Positions 18,037-32,756 of a stretch of 64,000 nucleotides of DNA are shown piece after piece. Made by a program: the position numbers and the translations under genes. The notes below the pieces were generated by a model. The model was not told the DNA's origin. It was given only the letters and a program-made list of their open reading frames with translations, and searched no databases. The stretch comes from Escherichia coli (GTDB lineage Bacteria > Pseudomonadota > Gammaproteobacteria > Enterobacterales > Enterobacteriaceae). Positions within the stretch are counted from its first letter, which is position 1. Each line of letters starts with the position of its first letter. The stretch lies in NCBI RefSeq assembly GCF_030013205.1, contig NZ_CP122648.1, one strand, 5' to 3'.

Positions 18037-20106
18037 ATGTCTGAGAAAACTTTTCTGGTGGAAATCGGCACTGAAGAGCTGCCACCAAAAGCACTGCGCA
18101 GCCTGGCTGAGTCCTTTGCTGCGAACTTTACTGCGGAGCTGGATAACGCTGGCCTCGCACACGGCACCGTACAATGGTTTGCTGCTCCGCGTCGTCTGGC
18201 GCTGAAAGTAGCTAACCTGGCGGAAGCGCAACCGGATCGTGAAATCGAAAAACGCGGCCCGGCGATTGCTCAGGCGTTCGACGCTGAAGGCAAACCGAGC
18301 AAAGCGGCAGAAGGCTGGGCGCGTGGTTGCGGTATTACCGTAGACCAGGCTGAGCGTCTGACTACCGATAAAGGTGAATGGCTGCTGTATCGCGCCCACG
18401 TGAAGGGCGAAAGCACTGAAGCACTGTTGCCGAATATGGTTGCGACTTCGCTGGCGAAACTGCCGATCCCGAAACTGATGCGTTGGGGTGCAAGCGACGT
18501 GCACTTCGTGCGTCCGGTGCACACCGTGACCCTGCTGCTGGGCGACAAAGTTATTCCGGCTACCATTCTGGGCATTCAGTCCGATCGCGTGATTCGCGGC
18601 CACCGCTTTATGGGCGAGCCGGAATTCACTATCGACAATGCCGATCAGTATCCGGAAATTCTGCGTGAGCGCGGGAAAGTCATCGCCGATTACGAAGAAC
18701 GTAAGGCGAAGATTAAAGCCGATGCCGAAGAAGCGGCGCGTAAGATTGGCGGTAACGCTGACTTAAGCGAAAGTCTGCTGGAAGAAGTGGCTTCGCTGGT
18801 GGAATGGCCGGTTGTGCTGACCGCAAAATTCGAAGAGAAATTCCTCGCGGTGCCGTCTGAAGCGCTGGTTTACACCATGAAAGGTGACCAGAAATACTTC
18901 CCGGTGTACGCGAACGACGGCAAACTGCTGCCGAACTTTATCTTCGTTGCCAACATCGAATCGAAAGATCCGCAGCAAATTATCTCTGGTAACGAGAAAG
19001 TCGTTCGTCCACGTTTGGCGGATGCCGAGTTCTTCTTCAACACTGACCGTAAAAAACGTCTGGAAGATAACCTGCCGCGCCTGCAAACCGTGTTGTTTCA
19101 GCAACAGCTGGGTACACTGCGCGACAAAACTGACCGCATCCAGGCGCTGGCTGGCTGGATTGCTGAACAGATTGGCGCTGACGTTAACCACGCAACCCGT
19201 GCGGGCCTGCTGTCCAAGTGCGACCTGATGACCAACATGGTCTTCGAGTTCACCGACACCCAGGGCGTTATGGGGATGCACTACGCGCGTCACGATGGCG
19301 AAGCGGAAGATGTTGCAGTGGCGCTGAACGAGCAGTATCAGCCGCGCTTTGCCGGTGATGACCTGCCGTCTAACCCGGTAGCCTGTGCGCTGGCGATTGC
19401 TGACAAGATGGATACTCTGGCGGGTATCTTCGGTATCGGCCAGCATCCGAAAGGCGACAAAGACCCGTTTGCGCTGCGTCGTGCCGCACTTGGCGTGCTG
19501 CGTATTATCGTTGAGAAGAACCTCAATCTTGACCTGCAAACCCTGACCGAAGAAGCGGTGCGTTTGTATGGCGATAAGCTGACAAATGCCAACGTGGTTG
19601 ATGATGTTATCGACTTTATGCTCGGTCGCTTCCGCGCCTGGTATCAGGACGAAGGTTACACCGTTGACACCATCCAGGCGGTACTGGCACGTCGTCCGAC
19701 GCGTCCGGCTGATTTCGATGCCCGAATGAAAGCGGTATCGCACTTCCGTACCCTGGATGCAGCTGCAGCACTGGCGGCGGCGAACAAGCGTGTATCTAAC
19801 ATTCTGGCGAAATCTGACGAAGTGCTGAGCGACCGCGTGAATGCCTCTACTCTGAAAGAGCCGGAAGAAATTAAACTGGCGATGCAGGTTGTGGTGCTAC
19901 GTGACAAGCTAGAGCCGTACTTTGCTGAAGGTCGTTACCAGGATGCGCTGGTCGAACTGGCTGAATTGCGTGAACCGGTTGATGCCTTCTTCGATAAAGT
20001 GATGGTCATGGTTGATGACAAAGAATTGCGAATCAACCGTCTTACCATGCTGGAGAAACTGCGCGAATTATTCCTGCGCGTTGCGGATATTTCGCTGTTA
20101 CAGTAA
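18037..20106 (+). CDS. glyS: Glycine--tRNA ligase beta subunit
   Basis: 689 aa; recognised GlyS; 9-bp spacing from glyQ. Confidence 0.97.
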
Positions 20107-20120
20107 TAACGCCGTTATTA

Positions 20121-20150
20121 AAAAGCCTGCCATCTGGCAGGCTTTTTTAT
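20121..20150 (+). terminator. Intrinsic terminator of glyQS
   Basis: Stem gcctgcca/tggcaggc followed by TTTTTT. Confidence 0.6.
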
Positions 20151-20427
20151 CGCTAAATAATACAGCAACCTTTAATAATCTTCTGATGAATAAAGATTAT
20201 CTCATATATTAATTTTATGAGATTTTTTTAGGATTATATCAAGGAGAAGAAACGAACTTATTAAGCTAGAATAGCCACGGGTGCTTGAGACTGTTTGTCT
20301 CAGGTATTCACCGAAAGGCAGACAGAGAAAAGCCCCACCTAACTATAAATCAAAGTGAGGCTACCCTATGCCTGAACACCATAAGGTTAGCCTCTTACTC
20401 GTTGGAAATCAACACAGGAGGCTGGGA

Positions 20428-20580
20428 ATGCCGCAGAAATATAGATTACTTTCTTTAATAGTGATTTGTTGCACGCTTTTATTTTTCACCTGGATGATAA
20501 GAGATTCACTGTGTGAATTGCATATTAAACAGGGGAGTTATGAGCTGGCGGCATTTTTAGCCTGCAATTTGAAAGAGTAA
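20428..20580 (+). CDS. hokA: Hok-family type I toxin
   Basis: 50-aa ORF MPQKYRLLSLIVICCTLLFFTWMIRDSLCELHIKQGSYELAAFLACNLKE with an in-frame upstream extension in the ORF-track entry 20368..20580. Confidence 0.8.
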   Translation: MPQKYRLLSLIVICCTLLFFTWMIRDSLCELHIKQGSYELAAFLACNLKE

Positions 20581-20712
20581 GAGTCTTCGGCGGGAAGTTA
20601 TTCCCGCCTTTCTTACGGCGTTGCGCATTCTCATTGCACCCAAATTTATTTTTCACAAAAATAATAATAGATTTTATTACGCGATCGATTATTTATTTCC
20701 TGAAAAACAAAT

Positions 20713-20740
20713 AAAAAAATCCCCGCCAAATGGCAGGGAT
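20713..20740 (-). terminator. Intrinsic terminator of cspA
   Basis: On minus strand: stem ccctgcca/ggcgggg followed by TTTTTTT. Confidence 0.55.
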
Positions 20741-20767
20741 CTTAGATTCTGTGCTTTTAAGCAGAGA

Positions 20768-20980
20768 TTACAGGCTGGTTACGTTACCAGCTGCCGGGCC
20801 TTTAGCGCCGCTTTCGATGGTGAAGGACACTTTCTGACCTTCGTCCAGAGATTTGTAACCATCGTTCTGGATAGCAGAGAAGTGTACGAACACGTCTTTA
20901 GAGCCATCGTCAGGAGTGATGAAGCCGAAGCCTTTGTCAGCGTTGAACCATTTTACGATACCAGTCATTTTACCGGACAT
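20768..20980 (-). CDS. cspA: Major cold shock protein CspA
   Basis: 70 aa, [21 protein letters not shown]... exact recognised sequence. Confidence 0.97.

Positions 20981-32336: not shown

Positions 32337-32756
<420 letters not shown>

Follow-up and report, generated by a model that had tools for sequence, protein, structure and literature searches.

An uninterrupted chromosomal hokA-mokA-sokA locus between glyS and cspA in Escherichia coli, with a probable R1-like organisation

The locus described here lies in the spacer between glyS and cspA in the window, i.e., the whole 64-kb stretch of Escherichia coli DNA that was analysed, which is identical to positions 160001–224000 of NZ_CP122643.1 (porcine strain ETEC4079). 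According to the ORF list and its coordinates, the glyS-cspA intergenic spacer occupies 20107–20767, exactly 661 bases. The stop codon of the glyS ORF (18037–20106, plus strand) directly precedes the spacer, and the stop codon of cspA (20768–20980, minus strand) lies at its other edge. The spacer contains the hokA toxin ORF (20428–20580, plus strand), which starts at an internal ATG (20428) and encodes a peptide of 50 aa, MPQKYRLLSLIVICCTLLFFTWMIRDSLCELHIKQGSYELAAFLACNLKE. The mokA reading frame (20368–20580, plus strand) starts at ATG 20368, comprises 70 codons plus a stop and is in frame with hokA. No insertion sequence was found in 20107–20767; the 661 bases align unbroken with complete E. 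coli genomes (2830 of them). The first-pass annotation of this DNA had reported a complete 50-codon hokA ORF between glyS and cspA, an in-frame upstream extension resembling mok and the lack of an insertion sequence, and all of this agrees with the family models, with the mokA ATG and its Shine-Dalgarno (SD) sequence and with the unbroken alignments. The locus type and its uninterrupted state are already known and annotated in RefSeq. In the NZ_CP122643.1 record, hokA is annotated as WP_001135727.1 and sokA has no annotation; the same HokA accession is annotated in at least three strains (K_EC180, NRZ88308, and ETEC4079).

According to the comparison with protein family models, the HokA peptide matches Pfam HOK_GEF (PF01848) with 79.3 bits (E = 1.5e-22, cut-off 22) and, over its full length (1–50), the NCBIfam HokA equivalog NF007290 with 126.5 bits (cut-off 89). 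The leader region 20279–20430 matches the Rfam sok family RF01794 over the complete model (1–157) with 119.8 bits (E = 5.7e-28, gathering score 59). Cysteines 14, 29, and 46 of the Hok/Gef proteins, which have been implicated in toxicity (PMC12214031), are all present in the window HokA, and an additional Cys15 is allele-specific. Antisense to the 3′ end of hokA, a 23-codon ORF, MRNAVRKAGITSRRRLLLFQIAG, was noted at 20557–20628 (minus strand). It corresponds to the small protein YsaE (b4793) of K-12, shows three differences from it, and appears in RefSeq only as a hypothetical protein.

Several further features were observed elsewhere in the window. Three tandem ldr/rdl type I toxin-antitoxin modules with a spacing of 483 bp are located at 40725–41912; the rdlD-type antisense matches lie at 40725–40790, 41208–41273, and 41691–41756 (minus strand), and the Ldr ORFs at 40839–40946, 41322–41429, and 41805–41912. 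In E. coli C, a single ldrD is annotated between yhjV and bcsG. The adjacent cellulose synthesis cluster (41999–45882) is largely deleted, with the junction at approximately 42826–42841. According to RefSeq, the N-terminus is missing from both remaining partial pseudogenes, bcsG (41999–42841, minus strand) and the abutting bcsC (42826–45882, plus strand), and the window lacks bcsF, bcsE, bcsR, bcsQ, bcsA, bcsB, and bcsZ, all of them found in E. coli C. In addition, at 32337–32749 a tRNA-Pro(CGG) gene precedes two repeats of the RtT type (101 and 96 bits); the E. coli C annotation of this region lists the tRNA only and no RtT repeats.

The predicted −10 box of the hokA promoter, TAGAAT (20267–20272, plus strand), is located 6 nt upstream of the mRNA 5′ end. 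In the alignment with the R1-type sequence it stands opposite the −10 box of plasmid R1 hok, TATGAT, at an equal distance from +1, and the R1 box has been confirmed by mutagenesis (PMC9841398). The hokA −10 box is kept in E. coli alleles and in Klebsiella, and the −35 region is weak. The predicted 5′ end of the mRNA coincides with the tac element, GGGUGCUUGAGA (20279–20290, plus strand), which is also the start of the Rfam sok-family match and aligns with the R1 +1 sequence, GGCGCUUGAGG. The ucb element, AAGCCCCAC (20330–20338, plus strand), the anti-SD of mokA, was located by the alignment with the R1-type sequence and by its pairing in the folds and is invariant in 14 of the 14 aligned orthologues. 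The mokA SD sequence GAGG (20357–20360) and the mokA ATG (20368–20370), both on the plus strand, have the GAGG-N7-AUG layout of R1 mok. In the fold of the window sequence, A20358 faces C20335 as an internal mismatch; the R1 counterpart is A106 facing C74 (PMC9841398). The in-frame mokA-hokA arrangement is also found in Klebsiella, Pseudocitrobacter, and the GTDB representative E. coli genome. The hokA SD sequence (20417–20421, plus strand) has the form GGAGG, the ancestral one by cross-genus comparison. According to the MFE fold and the orthologue alignment, the hokA SD and AUG are paired with 20548–20565 in a long conserved helix.

The MAFFT alignment of the hokA locus with the R1-type locus is unreliable over the coding region and the 3′ UTR; therefore, the 3′ elements were placed by folding. 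A hairpin just past the hokA stop codon (20589–20608, plus strand), called as terminator-like in a scan, would be the terminal hairpin of the processed mRNA; the equivalent R1 hairpin protects the truncated mRNA (PMC9841398). The fbi element, UCUCAUUGCACCC (20629–20641, plus strand), is complementary to the mRNA 5′ end in the MFE fold. Another hairpin (20716–20743), detected by the minus-strand terminator scan and by the cspA Rfam match, is shared with the cspA terminator and possibly serves as the end of the primary hokA transcript. Between hokA and cspA, some strains (L004, 2131–2502; L144, 695 onward) have an insertion of ~394 bp, which lies between fbi and the cspA terminator and carries a 123-codon ORF named ‘yidD’ in RefSeq.

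On the opposite strand, a sokA antisense RNA of ~56 nt is predicted (20322–20377, minus strand), beginning with a 5′ tail that covers the mokA start and continuing with a hairpin and a U-rich tail. The hairpin folds with −19.1 kcal/mol (z = −3.3), and the 3′ end at 20322 is the end of the 35-nt sokA remnant of K-12. The position of the sokA transcription start was deduced from the location of the promoter homologous to that of R1. This predicted promoter, placed by alignment, consists of a −35 box TTGATT (20412–20407), a 17-nt spacer, and a −10 box TAACCT (20389–20384), all on the minus strand. On inspection of the sequences, it lines up with TTGCGC-N17-TATCCT in the R1-like sequence, where the R1 promoter was read rather than mapped. 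The −35 box is invariant. The −10 box shares only 3 of its 6 bases with the consensus, and its TANNNT pattern is retained throughout E. coli, Kluyvera, Pseudocitrobacter, and Klebsiella. In a simple sigma-70 consensus scan, the promoters of hokA and sokA both stayed below the threshold, so that their assignments are based on homology and conservation. In the region of the mokA start and the sokA 5′ tail (20363–20376), two sharply distinct E. coli haplotypes were distinguished, with 5–6 differences in 14 bases; the N-terminus of MokA reads MPEH in one haplotype, and either MHRH or MYRH in the second. As the predicted recognition site of sokA lies here, the two haplotypes may not cross-regulate.

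Folding of the full-length 365-nt RNA gave an MFE of −137.3 kcal/mol with z = −7.6, and none of 100 shuffled sequences folded as well. In both the MFE and the centroid folds, tac (20279–20290) is paired with fbi (20629–20641) in a duplex of −18.4 kcal/mol, and in the full-length MFE fold ucb is paired with the mokA SD region (20355–20362). RNAs ending at 20609–20616 are predicted to switch to tac/ucb pairing, and in the first 42 nt of the nascent RNA a predicted local hairpin sequesters tac by pairing with 20297–20309. These three predicted conformations reproduce the states of the R1 model (PMC9841398).

Conservation of the structure was assessed in 14 hokA loci of E. coli, Kluyvera, Pseudocitrobacter, and Klebsiella, all of which lie downstream of glyS. 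Pairing was found in 95.2% of the structure cells, compared with 38–47% when the partners were slid; the tested MFE structure came from the window sequence itself, which inflates the score relative to these controls. Changes on both sides of a pair were detected at 7 pairs, 3 of which belong to the 3′ hairpin (helix 14, 8 pairs) across genera. The 5′ UTR is near-invariant in the 14 loci and better conserved than the coding sequence. The tac/fbi helix is paired in 100% of the cells in the hokA orthologues, where tac was fixed by the search pattern in the loci from outside E. coli. The loci of other genomes were collected by scanning with a 15-mer, GGGTGCTTGAGACTG, which yielded at least about 11 usable Enterobacterales loci, two of them cut by the end of the locus; the other matches listed were mostly chance ones in unrelated phyla. 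Among the matches listed, 12 other full-length hok-family loci were compared, and in 11 of them the 5′ end has its best 3′ partner at +334 to +353.

The position of hokA downstream of glyS was found in Klebsiella pneumoniae, Kluyvera, and Pseudocitrobacter. In E. albertii, the conserved 5′ end lies ~177 nt past glyS, and the locus sequence ends thereafter. Pseudocitrobacter faecalis (L047, 949–2219) contains three tandem copies of hokA, ~453 bp apart, between glyS and cspA, each with an in-frame mokA and an fbi of its own. A chance origin of the ORF and of the complementary elements in an AT-rich spacer could draw on the short length of the ORF only. It was rejected as practically inconceivable in view of the E-values (1e-22 to 1e-37 for the window HokA with curated protein models and 6e-28 for the leader with the Rfam model), the fold z-score of −7.6, and the synteny and structure shared across genera.

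By homology with plasmid R1 hok/sok, the following mechanism can be proposed for the window locus. The weak promoter with the −10 box TAGAAT would direct synthesis of a stable mRNA of ~365 nt or longer starting at 20279, and in the nascent transcript the 5′ end would be kept in the local hairpin. In the full-length mRNA, tac would be paired with the 3′ fbi and ucb would cover the mokA SD, and therefore no translation would take place. Slow trimming of the 3′ end to the hairpin at 20589–20608 would free tac, and the subsequent tac/ucb pairing would expose the mokA SD and start codon. Ribosomes starting at mokA would next unwind the long helix in which the hokA SD and AUG are hidden, and the membrane toxin would be produced as HokA of 50 aa or as the in-frame form of 70 aa. 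The sokA RNA (~20377 to 20322, minus strand) would pair with the trimmed mRNA around the mokA start, leading to its block or destruction. The transcription starts, the 3′ processing, the RNA half-lives, and the killing itself are here inferred.

The common order of elements in plasmid R1 hok/sok (parB) and in the window is as follows: the −10 box, tac, ucb, the mok SD and AUG, the antisense promoter inside mok, the hok SD, the ORF of the Hok/Gef toxin, the 3′ hairpin, and fbi. The R1 system is plasmid-borne, whereas the window locus is chromosomal and vertically inherited beside glyS. According to the reading of the R1 sequence, mok and hok of R1 are in different frames, whereas mokA of the window is in frame with hokA. 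The two nucleotide sequences are too diverged to be aligned reliably over most of the coding region. In contrast to R1 hok/sok, no plasmid stabilisation phenotype is known for the hokA locus (bioRxiv 10.1101/2025.08.07.668861). Comparison with R1, which the first-pass annotation had proposed, together with folding placed the sok promoter, the mok frame, and the fbi/tac elements, and the three RNA states of R1 were recovered in the predicted folds. The suggestion that a hok/sok organisation is retained in this strain thus stands at the sequence level, where all elements of the R1 model could be placed. Taken together, these data make it probable that hokA, mokA, and sokA of the window form a chromosomal type I toxin-antitoxin locus that is uninterrupted and ancestral in form, with an R1-like mechanism by homology.

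In K-12 MG1655, the first-pass annotation had expected an IS150 copy and an inactivated locus, and this proved to be so. The IS150 element of 1443 bp (3720633–3722075) is located between glyS and hokA (b4455), and mokA (b4647) and sokA (b4614) are annotated as pseudogenes, with the mokA stop being the hokA stop. The hokA gene of K-12 is regarded as inactivated by an insertion element (PMC12214031, PMC7232551). At the K-12 junctions, the flank on the glyS side ends at 20356/20357 and the flank on the hokA side resumes at 20396. As compared with the window, K-12 is without ~39 bp (window 20357–20395), so that the mokA SD, the mokA ATG, and the sokA −10 box and start are missing; the 35-nt annotated sokA remnant of K-12 corresponds to window 20322–20356. 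The insertion cuts hokA off from its promoter, tac, and ucb, which remain on the glyS side, and the 3′ hairpin and fbi remain downstream of hokA. The K-12 HokA is identical to the window HokA at 47 of 50 positions, the changes from K-12 to the window being F15C, E36G, and K47N.

The uninterrupted state is the majority state in the species. The 661 bases were found in one piece in 2830 of 5426 complete E. coli genomes (52%), the K-12-type IS150 junction in 1644 (30%), and a second IS150 junction in 912 (17%). In the second class, IS150 is inserted at ~20352–20356 in the opposite orientation and without a deletion. IS150 has entered the 45-bp mokA/sokA core (~20352–20396; loci L001 and L003) in two ways and in opposite orientations, by simple insertion and by insertion with a loss of ~39 bp, which together account for 47% of complete genomes. 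The two routes into the same core suggest either a target hot spot or selection for disruption. The IS150 flanks are ambiguous as to target-site duplications. A derivation of the K-12 state from the other IS150 allele by deletion was considered and rejected, since the orientation of the element is opposite. Alleles of hokA free of insertion sequences have been described before: such an allele is reported in the AIEC strain NRG857c (PMC7232551), and they have been known since the work of Pedersen & Gerdes (1999), E. coli C included, as cited in a preprint (bioRxiv 10.1101/2025.08.07.668861).

No lesion was found in the window allele when it was compared with the cross-genus consensus and with the R1 model. 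Disabling changes in the sok promoter or in the elements of translational activation, which the first-pass annotation had named as evidence against a functional organisation, were not detected in this comparison. The window matches the cross-genus consensus in the −10 box TAGAAT, tac, ucb, GAGG, the mokA ATG, the sokA TANNNT, GGAGG, Cys14, Cys29, Cys46, and fbi. At position 20419, GGAGG is found in the window, in K-12, in the second IS150 class, and in Klebsiella, Kluyvera, and Pseudocitrobacter, and GGGGG in E. coli C and in the majority of the other uninterrupted alleles of the species. The equivalent change in R1, A163G, is a loss-of-function suppressor near the hok SD (PMC9841398). Other uninterrupted alleles carry lesions of other kinds. 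In EC9682, the −10 box is TGGAAT, which is the same change as A-11G of R1, also a loss of function (PMC9841398). The O145:H28 allele has a 4-nt insertion at the mokA SD, 33F4 has an additional G between the mokA and hokA starts, and REF1 has lost one base ahead of the hokA ATG.

The frequencies of the SD variants were estimated from a spread sample of 60 rows of matches to the regulatory core 20342–20440 rather than from a full count. An exact match to the window core, i.e., uninterrupted with GGAGG, was found in 2 of the 60 rows. The window haplotype with one mismatch accounted for 14 rows (in 3 of the 3 sequenced, the mismatch was A-to-G at 20419), and GGAGG with a 1-nt gap ahead of the hokA ATG for 3 rows, one of which was sequenced. 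SE15 (98% identity) and O145:H28 were represented by one row each. The second mokA-start haplotype, with 7–8 mismatches, occurred in 11 rows and is consistent with GGGGG. The remaining rows showed the simple IS150 insertion (10) or the K-12 type (18). An allele that is clean across 20342–20440 is thus a minority one, amounting to ~3% of the sampled complete genomes.

A rival reading is that allele-specific changes beyond the reach of sequence comparison, namely F15C in HokA, G-to-A at 20341, or promoters that are too weak, have inactivated the window locus in a cryptic way. Among the aligned loci, Cys15 occurs only in the window and in the NRZ88308 allele, and A at 20341 only in the window; K_EC180, which is 100% identical to the window over the region, has both. 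The rarity of these changes, the poor −35 region of hokA and the 3/6 agreement of the sokA −10 box, both below the threshold of the sigma-70 scan, and the occurrence of single-base lesions in other uninterrupted alleles (EC9682, O145:H28, and those with 1-nt indels) all fit such inactivation. On the other hand, residue 15 is naturally variable (Phe, Tyr or Cys), and none of the three conserved cysteines is affected; position 20341 has no pairing partner in the mRNA fold, and in the sokA hairpin it changes only a C-G pair to U-G; and the identical HokA, WP_001135727.1, occurs in K_EC180, NRZ88308, and ETEC4079. Cryptic inactivation is therefore considered improbable.

The closest functional information comes from E. 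coli C, which shares with the window the glyS-hokA-cspA position, the gene set, and the regulatory elements. Its locus differs from the window at 13 of 661 positions (98% identity), position 20419 being among them: E. coli C has the hokA SD GGGGG and Phe15, whereas the window has GGAGG and Cys15. In addition, a 1-nt indel and one substitution between the 3′ hairpin and fbi distinguish the two loci. According to the preprint, the HokA coding sequence is toxic when overexpressed, and hokA of E. coli C reportedly showed neither plasmid stabilisation nor activation by rifampicin; this allele, together with hokB of K-12 and hokC of ECOR24, is reported there to give no post-segregational killing and no rifampicin activation (bioRxiv 10.1101/2025.08.07.668861).

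The organisation of the window locus is intact as judged from its sequence. The negative results with E. coli C, whose locus is so similar, and with hokB and hokC suggest that such a locus may be phenotypically silent, a quiescent or domesticated module whose RNAs are made and which does not kill when sokA is lost; too long a lifetime of sokA or a lack of mRNA activation, for example, could be the reason. Two points speak against this explanation. The E. coli C locus has GGGGG, which is equivalent to the loss-of-function change A163G of R1, so that the negative result may not transfer to the window allele; here, the E. coli C strain used in 1999 is assumed to have the same sequence as the RefSeq genome of E. 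coli C, which has GGGGG. Furthermore, the conservation of the RNA structure and of the 5′ UTR in four genera points to selection that still acts on regulation. On balance, a silent locus is a serious possibility that falls slightly short of an even chance.

The opposite reading is that the window is one of the few lesion-free E. coli hokA/sokA alleles, that chromosomal hokA may be live in strains of this kind, and that the locus has been lost or weakened in most lineages along separate routes, which in this reading comprise the two IS150 insertions, the change from GGAGG to GGGGG, 1-nt indels, and a −10 mutation. We regard it as rather unlikely, if less so than cryptic inactivation.

As found, the window contains an ordinary annotated type I toxin-antitoxin locus in its common state, which in itself matters little. 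The repeated independent disruption of the locus in E. coli is a hint that an active copy is selected against. Should the reading of a live locus be true, the view of chromosomal hok loci as inert would be based in part on a weakened allele, that of E. coli C, the only one with a published functional test. The modest value of the window strain is that of a reference allele, with every element that K-12 has lost and with the ancestral ribosome-binding site of hokA, which is altered in E. coli C and most other uninterrupted strains; since it keeps these elements, it is more suitable than K-12 or E. coli C as a template for the question of whether chromosomal hokA/sokA can still kill.
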